Shown here: positions 4,030-46,664 of the stretch, piece by piece
How positions within the stretch are numbered: the stretch's first letter is position 1
Layout of the letters: the number at the start of each line of letters is the position of its first letter
Virus record (IMG/VR): IMGVR_UViG_3300014039_000006
From: a virus
DNA: 64,000 nucleotides
Direction: 5' to 3' (one strand)
Position numbers and translations under genes: made by a program
Notes under the pieces: generated by a model
Seen by the model: only the letters and a program-made list of their open reading frames with translations
The model's database searches: none
Told to the model about the DNA's origin: nothing

Positions 4030-5346
4030 ATGGGAAAGGAAAGGTTATCCATTCAGTGGAAACTGATAAAAGAAAATTCCGATATACTAAGTTACGACAA
4101 GGTATTAGAAACGGGGTTAAATATGAATCCATTAATAGATGCGAATAGTTTATATGACGCCGGAACACTTGCAATAAAAAGCAGCAGCTTCAAGTACAAA
4201 ACACAATTATTTGAAATGAACCATCTTTTGGAAACTGCATTATTGCAGAGAGAATTGCAAGAAGGAACGTATAAGCCGGAAAAAGGAACAAAGTTTCTGA
4301 TCCATGAAAGAGGAAAAATCAGATACATCACAAGCAACACGATGAGGGATAAAACGGTTAACCATGTGTTGTGTGATGAAATCGTCATACCATCCATAGA
4401 AAAGTACTTGATTTACGACAACAGCGCTTCGCAGAAAGGCAAGGGAACTTCTTTTGCCAGAAAGAGACTGGAAGAACACTTGCACAGTTATTATAGAAAA
4501 TATGGAACTAATGACGGCTATATCTTGTTGATGGATTTTTCTGGTTATTATGCAAATATTCCACACGATAAATGCAAGGACATTCTGTATAGAATGGTTT
4601 TCCGAGACGGACTTGAAGAAGAACCGACCAAAACAGTAATTGAAAATATTTTTAAATCCTACGAAATGGATGTTTCCTATATGTCTGATGAAGAAATAAA
4701 AGTCTTGTATAGCACAAAGGTAGATCCTGTAATGAACCAAAACGTTCCGAAAGAATTGCTTACAGAACAAAAGATGCTAAAGAAAGGAGCGGACATAGGA
4801 AATCAGCTTGCTCAAGCAATAGGAATTACTTTTCCTTATAAGATTGATAATTATGTGAAAATCGTAAGAGGGTGCAAATTTTACGCCAGATATACGGATG
4901 ACAGCTATATTATTTCGAGCGATAGGGAATTTTTGTTTGATGTTTTGGACGGTATTAAAGAAATTGCGGATGAACATGGAATCATATTGAACAAAAAGAA
5001 AACGAGGATAGTAAAGATTTCCTCGTTTTTCAGATTTATGCAGATAGGATATTCCCTAACTGCCACAGGAAAAGTGATAAAGAAAATAAATCCTAAAAAT
5101 GTGAGAAGGGAAAGGGTGAAGCTGAAAAAATATAAAAAGTTGTTAGATAATGGAAAAATGACATATGCAGACATAGAAAATTGCTTTAAGTCTTGGATAT
5201 GTACATACTGGAAAATTATGTCGCACCAACAATTATACAATATGAACGCCCTGTATAAGGAGCTGTTTGGAAAGGGAATAAAATGGAAAACGAAAAATTC
5301 ACGATTACATTGGTTGATGGAACACAGTTCACCGGACTTTCAATGA
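4030..5346 (+). CDS. DGR reverse transcriptase
   Basis: RT motifs: LLMDFSGYYANI, NSASQKGKG (SQ motif) and the catalytic YTDD box (ARYTDDSYII). Immediately downstream of TR. An alternative start is at 4123 (MNPLID). Confidence 0.85.
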   Translation: MGKERLSIQWKLIKENSDILSYDKVLETGLNMNPLIDANSLYDAGTLAIKSSSFKYKTQLFEMNHLLETALLQRELQEGTYKPEKGTKFLIHERGKIRYITSNTMRDKTVNHVLCDEIVIPSIEKYLIYDNSASQKGKGTSFARKRLEEHLHSYYRKYGTNDGYILLMDFSGYYANIPHDKCKDILYRMVFRDGLEEEPTKTVIENIFKSYEMDVSYMSDEEIKVLYSTKVDPVMNQNVPKELLTEQKMLKKGADIGNQLAQAIGITFPYKIDNYVKIVRGCKFYARYTDDSYIISSDREFLFDVLDGIKEIADEHGIILNKKKTRIVKISSFFRFMQIGYSLTATGKVIKKINPKNVRRERVKLKKYKKLLDNGKMTYADIENCFKSWICTYWKIMSHQQLYNMNALYKELFGKGIKWKTKNSRLHWLMEHSSPDFQ

Positions 5347-38891: not shown

Positions 38892-39325
38892 GTAAAAATC
38901 GTAGTAATCGCGTACTAATGATTTTTGAGATTTTCCGTGAAAACCGATTTTCAAAAATCTCGGGAAAAACGCCAAAAAAAGATGTCACCCCAAAAAAGTC
39001 CGGGAGAAAAAAATTTCTTTCTTCCTCCCGGCTCCCTTCGCCCAACTCTAACGGCAATGCGATTATTTATATTGTACCCATACCGACTACACACCGGCGA
39101 AACTCCGGCATCATACCGGCATTAATACGGCGGCGGTTGTGTGCGCTACTGCCTACGCTGAAATCCGCACACGGCGTTAGAGGGGCACAATCAGACCATA
39201 CAAGCATAAATATATTATGGTATGGTACAATGCCATAATAAAGCCTATTAGCGGCGTTGTCAAGGTGCATTCTGATCCGTATTGTGTCAACCTGTCTACT
39301 TTAAAAGTGACAAAATAACACTTTT

Positions 39326-39366: not shown

Positions 39367-39379
39367 AATTTTGAATAAA

Positions 39380-39423
39380 ACCACCGCCCGGAATCGAACC
39401 GGGCAAGCACTCAATACGGTGGC
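39380..39423 (-). ncRNA. tRNA-like acceptor/T-arm minihelix B
   Basis: Minus strand: GCCACCG-N13-CCCGG-TTCGATT-CCGGG-CGGTGGT, followed by TTTTATT. The 5' G belongs to the TAG stop of the upstream ORF. Confidence 0.55.
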
Positions 39424-39536
39424 TAACGCTCAAGTTCAAAGATCGCCCAGCGCAAAGCTGCGACCGCTTCCGTGTCGTTTTCTTTCTCTGCACGCTCCAA
39501 CAGGGTGTATAAGGTGTCTATCTTTTTGTTTTCCAT
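39423..39536 (-). CDS. Hypothetical 37-aa protein (mini-operon ORF4)
   Basis: Not in the track. AAAGGAG SD. MENKKIDTLYTLLERAEKENDTEAVAALRWAIFELER. Confidence 0.4.
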   Translation of the reverse strand: MENKKIDTLYTLLERAEKENDTEAVAALRWAIFELER

Positions 39537-39568
39537 AGTTGCATACTCCTTTCTTTTATTTTTGTATA

Positions 39569-39622
39569 TGGCAAAGCCGGGGAATCGAACCCCGGAAAAT
39601 ACCGTCTATTCTTGTCTATGCC
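39569..39622 (-). ncRNA. tRNA-like acceptor/T-arm minihelix A
   Basis: Minus strand: GGCATAG-N20-CCGGGG-TTCGATT-CCCCGG-CTTTGCC-A. The 5' strand contains the TAG stop of ORF3. Confidence 0.5.
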
Positions 39623-39888
39623 AAAATCATTCTAGCCGTACTATATACATACTGTCTATTAAAACGGTGATGCTTGAAATCTCCAACGCTTTCAATTCTT
39701 TCTGCCGTGTTGGGATATTTCAAAGAAAAAACCGTGAAATACTTATCGAGCAGATCATCCGGACACTCTAAACAGTTTATCGCGCTCTGAATCTCGCTTT
39801 TGTTACTGTTCTGGTAGATCCCGTCAATCTTCACGCCTTTTTCTTCCTGTAATTGCTCCAATTTCTTAAGCATTTCGTATTTTGTCAT
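39616..39888 (-). CDS. Hypothetical 90-aa protein (mini-operon ORF3)
   Basis: GAAAGGAAG SD, ATG at 39888 (MTKYEMLKKLEQL...). The upstream part of track ORF 39616..39960 overlaps the RNA motif. Confidence 0.55.
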   Translation of the reverse strand: MTKYEMLKKLEQLQEEKGVKIDGIYQNSNKSEIQSAINCLECPDDLLDKYFTVFSLKYPNTAERIESVGDFKHHRFNRQYVYSTARMILA

Positions 39889-39904
39889 AATATTTTCTTC
39901 CTTT

Positions 39905-39973
39905 CTGCCCTGTCTCATCGGTACAGGTGGGGCGGTTCCTGTAGACGGTGGATTTTCCACCGTTTCGACTATC
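39905..39973 (-). ncRNA. Hammerhead type II-like element 2
   Basis: Minus strand: ATAGTC-GAAA-CGGTGG/CCACCG-TC|TACAGG/CCTGTA-CCGATGA-GAC. Confidence 0.55.
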
Positions 39974-40112
39974 TACAACTATTTAATTCAATGCATTTGT
40001 GGTTGCAATCTTCAATGCTTCCGGCAAATACGATTATATCGTTTCCGTCCTCACTCTTTTCTACTACGCAAAAGCCAAAATAATTATGATATGTTATATA
40101 ATATTCGTTCAT
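39969..40112 (-). CDS. Hypothetical 47-aa protein (mini-operon ORF2)
   Basis: Not in the track. MNEYYITYHNYFGFCVVEKSEDGNDIIVFAGSIEDCNHKCIELNSCR. Confidence 0.4.
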   Translation of the reverse strand: MNEYYITYHNYFGFCVVEKSEDGNDIIVFAGSIEDCNHKCIELNSCR

Positions 40113-40124
40113 TCCTTTCCCCTT

Positions 40125-40192
40125 CTAGCCTGTCATCATCGGAGCCGGGCGGCTGTCCCACGGCTGACGCTCCGGAGAGCGTTTCGACTATT
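40125..40192 (-). ncRNA. Hammerhead type II-like element 1
   Basis: Minus strand: ATAGTC-GAAA-CGCTC-TCCG-GAGCG-TC|AGCCG/CGGCT-CCGATGA-T-GAC. Confidence 0.55.
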
Positions 40193-40373
40193 TGTTTTCA
40201 ATTTCTTCTTTATATCTTTCTGCTTCTTCCAGTGTTGCGAAGTGTTTGCCAAATCCGCAATATGCAAATGTCTTTCCACCGTCAACGCTTCTAAAGATCA
40301 TAGCGTTGTAGTTGTAAATGTTTGCGACTGGAAAATGTAATTTCTGGATTTCTACCTTTTCGATTGTTTTCAT
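40188..40373 (-). CDS. Hypothetical 61-aa protein (mini-operon ORF1)
   Basis: AAAGGAGAG SD. Confidence 0.55.
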   Translation of the reverse strand: MKTIEKVEIQKLHFPVANIYNYNAMIFRSVDGGKTFAYCGFGKHFATLEEAERYKEEIENK

Positions 40374-40414: not shown

Positions 40415-40580
40415 TTAATATAACACGATAACGTCATATTTGCAATATAAAATATGTAACAAAATTAATAAAAAATCGCATCCATTAATTGTTTAATATG
40501 TATAACGATAACGTTGTAATAATAACACGATATAATATTTGTTGACATGGATAAAACAATATGCTATCGTTATATGCAGA
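40415..40580. promoter_or_regulatory. Divergent promoter region with four TAAC(AC)GATA(A/G)C operator-like sites
   Basis: Sites at 40420-40434, 40501-40514, 40521-40536 and, inverted, 40561-40577. TTGACA at 40542. Minus-strand TTGCAA, 17 nt, TATATT spans site 1. Confidence 0.55.
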
Positions 40581-40619: not shown

Positions 40620-40823
40620 ATGCCGGCAACAAAAGCACATATTAAAGCAACAACCAAATACGAGAAAAAAGCGTATTTTAAAACTTTGGTAAGATTTAAA
40701 AAATCAGATGAAGAAAAGATCAGAGAAGCAGCAGCCGGAAATCTAAATGGATTTATAGTTGATTGTGTACTGAAAGCAATTAATGACGTAAGCGAAAATA
40801 ATTTAATAGGTGCAAAAGAATAG
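40620..40823 (+). CDS. Small RHH/Arc-like regulator (paralogue of 41010..41426)
   Basis: KATTKYEKKAYFKTLVRFKKSDEEKIREAAAGNLNGFIVDCVLKAI aligns with KKAQNNYNSKFDLVQIKLPKGTKEKIREIIKENDTISGFCLKAVLNAI. Confidence 0.5.
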   Translation: MPATKAHIKATTKYEKKAYFKTLVRFKKSDEEKIREAAAGNLNGFIVDCVLKAINDVSENNLIGAKE

Positions 40824-44421: not shown

Positions 44422-44494
44422 AGGGATATCGCCAAGCGGTAACGGCACAGGATTTTGATTCCTGTATTCGTGGGTTCGAATCCCACTATCCCCG
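44422..44494 (+). tRNA. tRNA-Gln (anticodon UUG)
   Basis: Cloverleaf: acceptor AGGGATA/TATCCCC (A1.C72 mismatch), D arm GCC..GGC, anticodon arm CAGGA-TTTTGAT-TCCTG, T arm GTGGG-TTCGAAT-CCCAC. No encoded CCA. Confidence 0.8.
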
Positions 44495-44693
44495 TTTGGG
44501 TTACTTTTTCATAGCCCATGACATTTTCTCCTTTATACGTAAACCCACTAGCGGAAAGCTGTTAAGGACCGTCACAAGGTCCGGTGGGATTCTATGGATG
44601 GTGCATTCCATAACCGTAAAGACGGACACCAAAGAAATCCTTTCTAAGTGTTAAATGTACAGTGCCGGTTCTGATGCACGGAGCCGGTGCGCA

Positions 44694-44771
44694 TGGATAG
44701 TATGCAAACGGGTAAGCAAAAGGTCGAAAGACCGGATCAGCATTGCAAGGTTCAAGTCCTTGCCTATCCAC
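44694..44771 (+). ncRNA. tRNA-shaped RNA 1 lacking an anticodon loop
   Basis: Acceptor TGGATAG/CTATCCA, U8, D loop with GG, T arm GCAAGG-TTCAAGT-CCTTGC. The anticodon arm is replaced by GGTC-GAAA-GACC plus an 11-nt linker. Confidence 0.6.
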
Positions 44772-44941
44772 TCTCCGTAAGGCCATACGGAGCCTAGGAG
44801 CCGGTCATAGATATGTTGCAAGCAGAAATGACGGTGAAAAACTTATATTCGTGGTGAGAAGCTAAAACGTGAGACAACATAGCCGTTTGGTAGCGAATAG
44901 CATTCTTGAAGTTTCAAATGGGTTTATAGGGGATGCCATAA

Positions 44942-45057
44942 CGGATAGTAGCTCAATAGGAAGAGCAGTATTTGAAAAATGTGTTAACAAAACACTAACA
45001 GCAATTACTTTTTTCAGGGGCGCATACGTGTTGGCGGTTCGAGTCCGTCCTATCCGA
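44942..45057 (+). ncRNA. tRNA-shaped RNA 2 with an expanded, branched anticodon domain
   Basis: Acceptor CGGATAG/CTATCCG, U8, D arm GCTC-AATAGGAA-GAGC, T arm GGCGG-TTCGAGT-CCGTC. A 65-nt insert (TGAAAAA...TTTTTCA stem, GTGTT/AACAC hairpin) replaces the 17-nt anticodon arm. Confidence 0.6.
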
Positions 45058-45203
45058 TTTACAACGCACACAGCAATTACAATGGACAAAACAGATAATT
45101 TTGAAACCAATAAATGCGTTGTTTTTATACAACCCTAACAGCAAACAATAATTATTTTTCTTTGGGCAAAAATGAAAAACAAGGGTTGGGAAAGGTGAAA
45201 AAA

Positions 45204-46664
45204 ATGGAATTTTCAGAAGCAATGAGAAATGACGGGAAGTTTACAAGAACGGAAAATGGTGCTGTTGCGTTAAACACAACAGGAAATTCGTGCCTTGATC
45301 TTTTTGGAACGATAGGTTCATTAAGATGCGCTGATAAAGTAAGGATTGAAACCATGTTTGCGGAAGCATACAAAGAAAATCCATTACTTGCTACAAAATG
45401 CGTATTTTACGCAAGAGACATTAGATGCGGTCTTGGCGAGAGAAAAACATTTAGAACACTTATTAAGTATATGGCAGAAAATCACCCAGAATCTATTCGC
45501 AATAATATTGATTTGATTGGCTTTTACGGAAGATATGATGATCTTTATTCTCTTGTCGGAACGCAACTTGAAGATGAAATGTTTTCTTCGATGAAAGATC
45601 AGTTTGAAAAAGATCTGGACTCCATGGAAAAAGGTTGCGCAGTTTCGCTTCTTGGAAAATGGATTAAAACAAGCGCAACCAGAAACAAAGACGGTAAGCA
45701 ACTTGGAATTTTGACGGCTGAAAAATTAGGATATGAGAACAAAGAATTTAATATTCTTGTTCGTAAATTACGGTCTTATATAGGGATTGTTGAAAGGGAT
45801 ATGTCTGCCGGAAACTGGGATAAAATTAAATATCCGGAAGTACCTAGCCGTGCAATGATGCTTTATAGAAAAGCGTTTGAAAGACACGATGCAGAAAGAT
45901 TTTCGGATTTTACAAGAAAAGCGTTATCTGGCGAAGAAAAAATCAATTCTTCTACGCTTTACCCATATGATATTGTCGAAAAAATATTATATAGTGGAAA
46001 AAATAGTGAAGTATTAGAAGCACAATGGAAGCAACTTCCTGACTACGTGGAAAAAGGAACAAATGCTTTGGTTATGGCAGATGTATCGGGATCCATGTAT
46101 GGAAGACCAATGGCAACATCAATTGGCCTTGCAATTTACTTTGCAGAGAGAAATGTCGGTGCATATCATAATCTGTTTATGACATTTTCCAGTATGCCAA
46201 AAACAGTTGCCTTAAAGGGAGAAACGCTTGAACAGAAGATATGCAATGTGAGCAGAGCGAATTGGAGCATGAATACAGATCTTCAAGCGGCTTTCTATAA
46301 AGTCCTTGAAATTGCGAAAAAAAACAATGTTTCACGGGAAGAAATGCCAAAATCTATTATTGTTATTTCTGATATGGAAATTGATGCTTGCGGAGACGAA
46401 GACTGGTCTTTCTATGACAATACGGCAAAGAAATTTAATGAGTCCGGTTATGATATTCCAAACATTATTTTTTGGAATGTAAACAGCAGAAGCAATGTAT
46501 TTCACGCAGATGCGGACAGAAAAGGAGTTCAAATTTGCAGCGGACAGTCAACCACAGTCTTTAAGCAATTGATTGGTTGCATTGGCTTTACTCCGGTTGA
46601 AATGATGAAAAAAGTTTTATGCTCTGAAAGATACGAGAATATTTCGATAGTGGGGAAAGCCTAG
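45204..46664 (+). CDS. Ro60-like architecture protein (helical N-domain + vWA with MIDAS; resembles DUF2828 family)
   Basis: N-terminus FTRTENGAVALNTTGNSCLDLFGTIGSLR (recalled as the DUF2828 signature). ~300-aa helical region, then the DxSGS MIDAS motif in VMADVSGSMYG. Confidence 0.6.
   Translation: MEFSEAMRNDGKFTRTENGAVALNTTGNSCLDLFGTIGSLRCADKVRIETMFAEAYKENPLLATKCVFYARDIRCGLGERKTFRTLIKYMAENHPESIRNNIDLIGFYGRYDDLYSLVGTQLEDEMFSSMKDQFEKDLDSMEKGCAVSLLGKWIKTSATRNKDGKQLGILTAEKLGYENKEFNILVRKLRSYIGIVERDMSAGNWDKIKYPEVPSRAMMLYRKAFERHDAERFSDFTRKALSGEEKINSSTLYPYDIVEKILYSGKNSEVLEAQWKQLPDYVEKGTNALVMADVSGSMYGRPMATSIGLAIYFAERNVGAYHNLFMTFSSMPKTVALKGETLEQKICNVSRANWSMNTDLQAAFYKVLEIAKKNNVSREEMPKSIIVISDMEIDACGDEDWSFYDNTAKKFNESGYDIPNIIFWNVNSRSNVFHADADRKGVQICSGQSTTVFKQLIGCIGFTPVEMMKKVLCSERYENISIVGKA

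Follow-up and report, generated by a model that had tools for sequence, protein, structure and literature searches.

A 64,000-nt stretch of the IMG/VR virus record IMGVR_UViG_3300014039_000006, referred to here as the window, was analyzed for an operon on its minus strand in which small open reading frames (ORFs) alternate with structured RNA elements. The window has the look of a temperate phage, with ~39% G+C and genes for a serine recombinase, a CI-like repressor and an ORF6N domain protein. The RNA elements comprise two type II hammerheads (HH1 and HH2) and two tRNA-like elements (A and B). A preliminary description, made from the letters alone, had proposed that each junction of the operon carries an RNA-processing motif whose cleavage would release monocistronic mRNAs. 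The features are given below from high to low coordinates, with the support for RNA elements in brackets; covariance model R1 and alignment A4 are described further on.

40620-40823, plus strand: divergent gene of 67 amino acids (aa), on the opposite side of the control region from the operon
40421-40434, 40501-40514, 40505-40518 and 40561-40574: operator-like repeats of the TAYAACRATAACGT type in the divergent control region
40417-40445, minus strand: promoter-like site TTGCAA-17 nt-TATATT with a TG extension, 5′ of ORF1 (consensus match only)
40188-40373, minus strand: ORF1, 61 aa, Shine-Dalgarno (SD) sequence AAGGAGA, stop TAG at 40190-40188
40124-40189, minus strand: type II hammerhead HH1 (Rfam RF02276 and descriptor parse)
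39969-40112, minus strand: ORF2, 47 aa, stop TAG at 39971-39969
39907-39970, minus strand: type II hammerhead HH2 (alignment A4, pair counts and descriptor)
39616-39888, minus strand: ORF3, 90 aa, conserved anchor gene of the operon family, stop TAG
39569-39623, minus strand: tRNA-like element A, after ORF3 (local match to R1; minimum-free-energy (MFE) fold, z = -2.1)
39423-39536, minus strand: ORF4, 37 aa, stop TAG at 39425-39423
39379-39423, minus strand: tRNA-like element B, a mini-tRNA, after ORF4 (full-length match to R1, strict descriptor match)
39365-39331 and 39327-39300, minus strand: two hairpins 3′ of element B, without a U-tract (MFE fold, z = -3.2)

The four minus-strand ORFs of the preliminary description (61, 47, 90 and 37 aa), each with an SD sequence and a TAG stop codon, are all present in the ORF listing. 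At all four, the TAG is indeed embedded in the following RNA element: the AG of the ORF1 and ORF2 stops forms positions 1-2 of the respective hammerhead, the ORF3 TAG lies within the 5′ acceptor strand of element A and the G of the ORF4 TAG is acceptor position 1 of element B. An SD sequence had been expected directly after each motif. This was found for HH1, HH2 and element A but not for element B, which has no downstream ORF. The promoter and operators placed 5′ of ORF1 were recovered as a candidate promoter (40445-40417) and clustered operator-like repeats, with four of the seven TAYAACRATAACGT matches in the window lying at 40421-40574 (chance expectation for the whole window, 2.1). The palindrome noted after element B is likewise present, as a hairpin spanning 39365-39331. 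By eye, the product of the divergent 67-aa gene appears ribbon-helix-helix-like; it had no match in Pfam or PHROGs.

Both elements described earlier as hammerhead-like parsed as type II hammerheads, with an open stem II and GUC after stem III. HH1 matched Hammerhead_II (RF02276) at 43.1 bits (gathering score 37) and is composed of stem I AGCCG/CGGCU, stem II GUC/GAC and stem III GCUC/GAGC, with a predicted cleavage site GUC^A between 40166 and 40165. Its stem I loop AGCC pairs with GGCU (40130-40127) in a pseudoknot that covaries by eye, AGCC/GGCU being GGUC/GACC in relatives (two compensatory positions). HH2 has stem I UACAGG/CCUGUA, stem II GUC/GAC, stem III ACGGUGGA/UCCACCGU, a pseudoknot of GCCC with GGGC (39910-39907) and a predicted cleavage site GUC^U between 39944 and 39943; it was absent from the Rfam output even at E ≤ 10. 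Alignment A4 contains HH2 and 30 homologues, that is, 31 distinct sequences from the 80 nt 5′ of ORF3 homologues, picked by position and sequence homology only. Across A4, 99.3% of cells were paired in the hammerhead fold including the pseudoknot, with five compensatory pairs, and sliding the 3′ partners by 1-3 columns lowered pairing to 31-40%. Individual helices were 97.8-100% paired, stems I and III contained compensatory changes, and the pseudoknot was 99.2% paired. Applied to 106 related loci (see below), a hammerhead descriptor found 131 sites, all of them on the operon strand; within the window it returned HH1 and HH2 only. Other non-alpha hammerhead copies fell under the gathering threshold, for example at 27.7 bits in locus L048 (2251-2316). 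Relative to the invariant core CUGAUGA...GAAA, both window copies keep GAAA and have CUGAUGA replaced by CCGAUGA (HH1, 40142-40136 with U4→C at 40141; HH2, 39921-39915 with U4→C at 39920). We filed them as core-variant hammerheads.

Of the two tRNA-like elements, B has the full mini-tRNA fold and A only part of it. Element B is a complete mini-tRNA with acceptor GCCACCG/CGGUGGU (7 bp), a 13-nt linker and T-arm CCCGG-UUCGAUU-CCGGG, in which the T-arm hairpin abuts the 3′ acceptor strand without a spacer (7 bp + 5 bp; MFE fold z = -3.4). At its 3′ end, U occupies the discriminator position and is followed by a U-rich tail. Element A has a perfect T-arm, with T-stem CCGGGG/CCCCGG (39595-39590 with 39582-39577) and T-loop UUCGAUU (39589-39583), but an irregular acceptor-like stem, in which UGGCAUAG (39623-39616, containing the ORF3 TAG) faces CUUUGCCA (39576-39569) over 8 bp with one U-U mismatch; this stem takes in the last ORF3 codons. 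Both T-arms conform to the consensus GGTTCRANYCC (A, GGGGTTCGATTCCCC; B, CCGGTTCGATTCCGG). Covariance model R1 was built from nine sequences that belong to three other sequence classes and do not come from the window. Run over both strands of the 64-kb window, it returned A and B as the sole significant matches, B at full length (39423-39380; 31.3 bits, E = 4.5e-5) and A limited to linker and T-arm (26.3 bits), with 11.4 bits for the T-arm of the real tRNA-Gln. A full cloverleaf was found at neither element: ARAGORN called only the tRNA-Gln at 44422-44494, and the Rfam tRNA model had no match at A or B. The top Rfam match of element A was mascRNA (RF01684) at 19.5 bits, which is sub-threshold (gathering score 42.5).

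The 106 loci were collected from three kinds of source: ENA/Logan metagenome and sequencing-run contigs on which an ORF3 homologue is encoded, metagenome-assembled genomes of Lachnospiraceae, Eubacteriales and Christensenella, and IMG/VR gut phages of 30-67 kb. A typical locus, as seen in most of those inspected, has a divergent Cro/CI-type helix-turn-helix gene opposite a row of small co-oriented ORFs. The design of the window operon recurs in ~100 related gut-phage loci (Lachnospiraceae and other Clostridia). The RNA motifs are conserved in these homologous operons; a lack of such conservation had been named as speaking against the proposal. Among GenBank phages, a single 50-nt match was obtained, to a hammerhead in Dulem virus 39. 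This virus (L107, PP511791.1) has the same operon layout at 1979-2578, with two unannotated type II hammerheads, and its record carries no RNA features in the stretch shown. An annotated 29-aa coding sequence (L107:2049-2138), which begins within a hammerhead core CUGAUGA, is probably spurious.

To define the mini-tRNAs across these loci, we used a descriptor in which an acceptor with at least six of seven pairs is separated by a linker of 4-30 nt from a 5-bp T stem that closes a TTCRANN loop and directly abuts the 3′ acceptor strand. It found 86 sites on the operon strand, one in the reverse complement and none in the reversed or the complemented sequence. R1 behaved similarly, with 72 matches on the operon strand and one on the other at E ≤ 0.01 (95 loci). 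Members of the family measure 44-52 nt and have neither a D nor an anticodon arm; their 7+5 geometry is common to at least 12 stem sequences that are unrelated to each other. In the R1 alignment, 93.6% of cells were paired (65% when shuffled, 36-57% when slid), and both-sided changes occurred in nine of the 12 pairs, a count that rests on an alignment fitted to R1. As in real tRNAs, the two G-C pairs next to the T-loop hardly vary: of 47 distinct sequences, 46 keep one of them and all 47 keep the other. Within class A, whose elements come after most ORF3 homologues, alignment A3 was 94% paired with both-sided changes in no pair, and alone it neither supports nor refutes the fold. Because it is uninformative, support for the mini-tRNA fold was sought in the cross-class comparison and in the strand and reversal controls.

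Two further attempts were set aside. A mixed-class MAFFT alignment (A2) reflected chance sequence similarity with a broken structural register and was replaced by A5, a gap-free alignment of equal-length sequences, together with the covariance model. Matches of a relaxed descriptor on the opposite strand were mostly reverse complements of hammerhead stem III and vanished when the tRNA T-loop was required. A 2.1-kb stretch of L048 containing three mini-tRNA classes had no Rfam match above threshold (best, mascRNA at 22.3 bits). RAGATH-36 reached 18.6 bits (gathering score 70), and no RAGATH or other Rfam family fits the mini-tRNAs, which are an RNA family without any Rfam model.

One class invited comparison to a ribozyme. 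The class B linker GCAGAGRAUGC and the AAGCCCGG that follows it resemble the twister segments cGCAGAGgG...UAAUGC...CAAGCCCGg of the Twister-P5 consensus, as might be expected if the tRNA-like elements, or at least class B, were catalytic or were ribozyme relics of twister ancestry. Pistol, hatchet and twister-sister were, after all, discovered by searching beside known ribozymes (PMC5737381). We nevertheless regard catalysis or such an origin as very unlikely: class B is devoid of the P2 helix, the 3′ internal loop and the U-A cleavage dinucleotide at the twister position, no twister model matched class B at E ≤ 10 (window) or E ≤ 5, and most classes have a canonical tRNA T-loop without a twister-like linker.

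To compare junctions across the related operons, we classified their 276 unique ORF-ORF junctions as follows.

87 junctions: hammerhead
71 junctions: mini-tRNA
60 junctions: gap >30 nt without a detected element
58 junctions: gap ≤30 nt

The 60 junctions of the third group include some degenerate mini-tRNAs of the kind of window element A. The coupling of stop codon and element described for the window proved general: of 87 unique hammerhead junctions, 75 have YGAAA starting 1-2 nt 3′ of the stop, and the mini-tRNA acceptor begins at -2 to +5 nt relative to the stop in 48 of 70. TAG is the commonest stop codon (58/87 hammerhead and 40/70 mini-tRNA junctions), probably because its AG or G belongs to the element. 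Both element types are confined to the operon strand, apart from the single opposite-strand mini-tRNA matches.

Different elements also occupy the same site. Directly 3′ of the stop codon of the ORF3 homologue, the majority of loci have a class A mini-tRNA, while 12 unique sequences have a type II hammerhead (for example, L003-L008, L026, L032, L057 and L062), L022 has a Twister-P5 ribozyme (38.0 bits) and other loci have no element, with the next SD sequence following immediately. The L022 operon (L022:1498-4221, from a Bacillota metagenome-assembled genome) combines several of these modules in the order 60-aa ORF, pistol (49.8 bits), 137-aa ORF, twister (Twister-P5 at 33.9 bits, slightly under threshold), 72-aa ORF, ORF3 homologue, twister, J-domain-like protein, mini-tRNA and 96-aa ORF; the J-domain-like motif encoded 3′ of the second twister was recognized by eye. 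The analysis thereby shows folds that are conserved and covary, are specific in strand and position and replace one another at equivalent junctions. We propose that these separator modules are functionally equivalent and have been exchanged between phages. Such exchange suggests that their job is to separate or insulate neighboring cassettes.

Cassette content itself is shuffled between phages, with homologues of ORF1 and ORF2 at differing operon positions. An ORF1 homologue of 80% identity occurs at another operon position in L088, and ORF2 homologues of 64-78% identity occur in L046, L077 and L092. Homologues of ORF4 (78-92% identity) were found in seven loci, and a B-type element comes next in every case. 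The elements could be viewed as recombination linkers or selfish passengers whose cleavage is incidental or lost. Varied and re-ordered cassettes would fit this reading, as would the presence or absence of elements at orthologous junctions and the identical 12-nt 5′ segment (repeat D7) shared by HH1 and HH2. The same holds for the U4→C exchange (U4C, core CCGAUGA), which occurs in 31 of 87 unique family hammerheads from three subtypes; the two window hammerheads would then be decaying copies. We consider this explanation unlikely. The U4C copies are otherwise intact, and stems covary with core and pseudoknot kept, also among C4 copies, whose stem III has three different sequences. This points to selection on the fold and not on DNA sequence alone. 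Furthermore, four unrelated RNA folds at one position imply a shared function at the RNA level, and U4C is compatible with function in a viroid (PMC3088659).

The U-rich ends of the mini-tRNAs raise another alternative, in which the tRNA-like elements are terminators or attenuators thinning transcription between cassettes and element B simply ends the operon. Of 70 unique junction mini-tRNAs, 51 have T at three or more of the five positions that follow the acceptor strand, and element B, the last in the operon, was flagged as terminator-like. These U-runs are short, however, typically with three T in five, and the 71 unique mini-tRNAs sit between co-oriented ORFs, at junctions that, where inspected, are too short before the next SD sequence to fit a promoter. 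A terminator has no need for a conserved UUCRANN, for invariant or near-invariant G-C pairs or for a gap-free junction of T-stem and acceptor, and self-cleaving ribozymes occur at the same site in other phages. Transcription termination as the main role thus appears improbable to us.

We lean, with some reserve, toward reading the locus as an accessory cassette operon of a temperate Clostridia gut phage (Lachnospiraceae-type hosts) in which an RNA-scission module follows every cistron. Transcription would start from one regulated promoter opposite the divergent regulator gene, and each cistron would be followed by a scission-directing module beginning at its stop codon. HH1 and HH2 would self-cleave after C40166 and C39944, leaving the upstream cistron with its stop codon and a terminal stem III hairpin, and a downstream RNA that starts base-paired in stem I just 5′ of the next SD sequence. 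The mini-tRNAs, with the acceptor stacked on the T-arm, would direct a 5′ cut by host RNase P, a 3′ cut by RNase Z or both. A stacked acceptor/T-arm helix of ~12 bp is the minimal substrate of RNase P, RNase Z and the CCA enzyme; element B offers 7 bp + 5 bp in direct contact, and element A a 6-bp T stem with a mismatched 8-bp stem. What we infer from these folds is cleavage in vivo, the identity of the enzyme acting on the mini-tRNAs and the consequences for mRNA stability or translation. RNase P and RNase Z leave 5′-phosphate and 3′-OH ends, ribozymes 5′-OH and 2′,3′-cyclic phosphate ends. The exchange of modules with such different end chemistry argues that scission itself matters, and against ligation or circularization through the 2′,3′-cyclic phosphate.

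Several points weigh against this scenario. As judged from the sequence, canonical RNase P cleavage would split the ORF4 TAG between A and G in element B and would fall 5′ of the ORF3 TAG in element A. A cut within or before the TAG would leave an upstream mRNA without a stop codon. Because non-stop mRNAs in bacteria are normally targeted for rescue by transfer-messenger RNA, this argues against simple stabilization of the upstream cistron. The 3′ minihelix product foreseen in the preliminary description would arise with a 3′-side (RNase Z) cut only and not with the canonical RNase P cut, and its individually stabilized monocistronic mRNAs are a presumed outcome. RNase Z may act alone, the cut may deliberately limit upstream-gene expression, or translation may be finished before the element folds. 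For the tRNA-like elements, further counterpoints are the U-rich 3′ tails, the terminator-like flag of element B in a consensus scan and its terminal position, the fitted alignment behind the cross-class covariation and the lack of both-sided changes in class A. Window element A, moreover, departs from the canonical 7+5 geometry, and the relatives nearest to it (L028 and L031) appear partly decayed. For the hammerheads, the closest relatives of the window (L027, L028 and L030) have U4, while both window copies have U4C, which considerably lowers in vitro activity (PMC3088659). U4C nonetheless supports viroid infectivity (PMC3088659), and the window hammerheads may accordingly be slow, not dead; as a natural variant, U4C could be either tolerated or deliberately slow in cleavage.

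The hammerhead half of our observation is already published. Perreault et al. (2011; PMC3088659) reported multiple hammerheads flanking individual variable genes in prophages, proposed that phage transcripts are processed into gene-length mRNAs and described tandem arrays that cleave in vitro, including one from the Lachnospiraceae species Clostridium scindens. Those prophage hammerheads share with the present operon the type II fold, the pseudoknot between stem I loop and 3′ tail and a context of small variable genes near integrase and repressor genes. The operon studied here differs in the U4C core of both copies and, with its relatives, in junctions that are also tRNA-like, twister or pistol, of which we found no mention in the main text of that paper; the HH2 sequence was not matched in its supplements.

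Counterparts of the mini-tRNAs are found outside phages. The likeness of class A to mascRNA is an analogy and not membership, given scores far below 42.5 bits in both the window and L048. In vertebrates, mascRNA and its MEN-beta counterpart are small tRNA-like signals for RNase P and RNase Z cleavage within longer nuclear long non-coding RNAs. In animal mitochondria, Ojala, Montoya and Attardi reportedly described in 1981 a tRNA punctuation in which RNase P and RNase Z excise tRNA-shaped signals from between the cistrons of a polycistronic RNA, and such cuts can leave incomplete stop codons. The mitochondrial signals are functional tRNAs, whereas the phage operons mix non-decoding mini-tRNAs with ribozymes. 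Plant mitochondria have t-elements, said to have been described by Hanic-Joyce in 1990. At the ends of mRNAs they guide cleavage by RNase P and RNase Z, and those of nad6 and ccmC give 3′ ends within the reading frame and hence mRNAs without a stop codon (Forner et al., 2007; PMC1920247). Like the mini-tRNAs, t-elements are tRNA-like without a full cloverleaf, have a GGTTCRANYCC T-arm and lie at the ends of coding transcripts; in-frame 3′ ends on stopless mRNAs are predicted alike for elements A and B. The mini-tRNAs are distinguished by their phage or bacterial host, their size of 44-52 nt, their fusion to stop codons and their exchangeability with ribozymes, and their cleavage is a prediction.

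Mixtures of ribozymes and other structured RNAs also have precedents in phages. RAGATH motifs reportedly date from Weinberg 2015. In phage-like regions, different classes of self-cleaving ribozyme gather, together with other structured RNAs, around shared classes of genes (Weinberg et al., 2017; PMC5737381), and the L022 operon likewise unites pistol, twister and twister. In gut phages, theta (hepatitis delta virus-like) ribozymes adjoin tRNAs, and the ribozyme matures a suppressor tRNA (PMC10879173). That system and the present operon both place a self-cleaving ribozyme and a tRNA-shaped RNA on one gut-phage transcript; here, ribozymes and tRNA mimics would instead be alternative separators of protein cistrons. 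We found no description of mini-tRNAs at ribozyme-type junctions of phage operons in the literature, the coverage of which was incomplete, so that this absence is not proof. A ribozyme-punctuated phage operon with t-element-like tRNA mimics as equivalent punctuation would appear to be new. More tentatively still, and at slightly less than even confidence, we suggest that gut-Clostridia phages use interchangeable separators consisting of three ribozyme classes (hammerhead, twister and pistol) and 44-52-nt mini-tRNAs that would recruit host RNase P or RNase Z. Such mini-tRNAs would be the first phage or bacterial counterpart of mitochondrial t-elements and tRNA punctuation.

A tRNA shape can serve purposes other than scission. 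The mini-tRNAs might be mimics that act as decoys or platforms for tRNA-recognizing proteins of host or phage, or as protective 3′ caps in the manner of viral tRNA-like structures, with the CCA-adding enzyme, T-loop modification enzymes, acceptor-end-targeting toxins and defense nucleases as candidate partners. Their T-loop and G-C hallmarks are strictly kept, and the combination of a U-rich trailer with no encoded CCA fits substrates that are given CCA after 3′ trimming; CCA-less tRNA genes occur in Firmicutes. The same window also has a Ro60-like gene beside a Y-RNA-like tRNA mimic (see below), so that tRNA mimicry would already be in use by this phage. Without an anticodon arm, however, the mini-tRNAs cannot decoy anticodon nucleases, and a decoy role leaves both their placement at stop codons and their exchange with ribozymes unexplained. 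We regard a role of this kind as rather unlikely and retain scission as the preferred function.

The biological role of many bacterial and phage self-cleaving ribozymes is still open, according to a review (PMC6765202). Hammerhead, twister and tRNA mimic at orthologous junctions amount to a natural substitution experiment that points to simple scission as the selected function. If this is true, the function of phage ribozymes would be plain scission or insulation of shuffled small-gene cassettes, and mRNA processing of the tRNA-punctuation type would extend from organelles to phages. The scission idea thereby becomes directly testable, and the elements would represent compact natural insulator parts, comparable to engineered ribozyme and tRNA spacers.

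The proteins encoded between the elements had been described as lacking recognizable motifs, and Pfam, PHROGs and structure searches gave the same picture. ORF1-ORF3 had no match in Pfam or PHROGs, and ORF4 matched weakly to one PHROG of unknown function, with no informative family in either database. The ORF3 homologues form 54 clusters (alignment A1), none with a Pfam domain. AlphaFold predicted ORF3 as a five-helix protein with high confidence (predicted local distance difference test score, 96.1), and this model had no structural neighbor in PDB or BFVD. An accessory or anti-defense role of the cassettes is only a guess, made by analogy to the ardA example of Perreault et al. (2011; PMC3088659).

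Additional observations concern individual mini-tRNA classes. A small conserved hairpin, for example ACCCGGAGCAACCGGAAAA, is commonly located between the class A mini-tRNA and the next SD sequence (L045:2817-2845 and other class A loci). It could be a 5′ stabilizer of the downstream RNA after a 3′-side cut; window element A is without it. In class B (for example, L003:3488-3531, L006:3852-3895 and L012:3542-3585), the first three nt of the hairpin loop look complementary to the linker in several copies (CCC with GGG, CUC with GAG and UUC with GAA, by eye only), which suggests a loop-linker tertiary pair.

Neighboring regions of the window also contain RNA features. Just 3′ of the operon, the minus strand at 38990-39263 begins with a strong promoter-like site, TTGACA-17-TATTAT (39263-39235; 11 of 12 matches), followed by ~200 nt of GC-rich sequence without a convincing ORF and a clear intrinsic terminator (CCGGGAGG...CUCCCGG with a U-run), and is a candidate stand-alone non-coding RNA. 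This stretch is conserved at 81-87% in L027-L031 and had no Rfam match at E ≤ 1; three compensatory pairs were seen in five sequences, whose divergence is too small for a fold test. On the plus strand, a gene at 45114-46664 encodes a protein with DUF2828 and DUF7788, a family that we take to be related to Ro60/TROVE. The tRNA-Gln and loose tRNA-like descriptor matches at 44543-44589 and 44710-44769 lie 5′ of this gene. Between them and the gene, 44942-45057 resembles a tRNA with a 54-nt insertion for the anticodon arm (41.6 bits with the Rfam tRNA model, ARAGORN silent). In its layout, the region 44422-46664 thus resembles a Ro60-like gene accompanied by a tRNA mimic of the Y-RNA type. Lastly, a reverse-transcriptase gene (RVT_1, E = 1.6e-12) at 4030-5346 on the plus strand could belong to a diversity-generating retroelement or a retron-type system.

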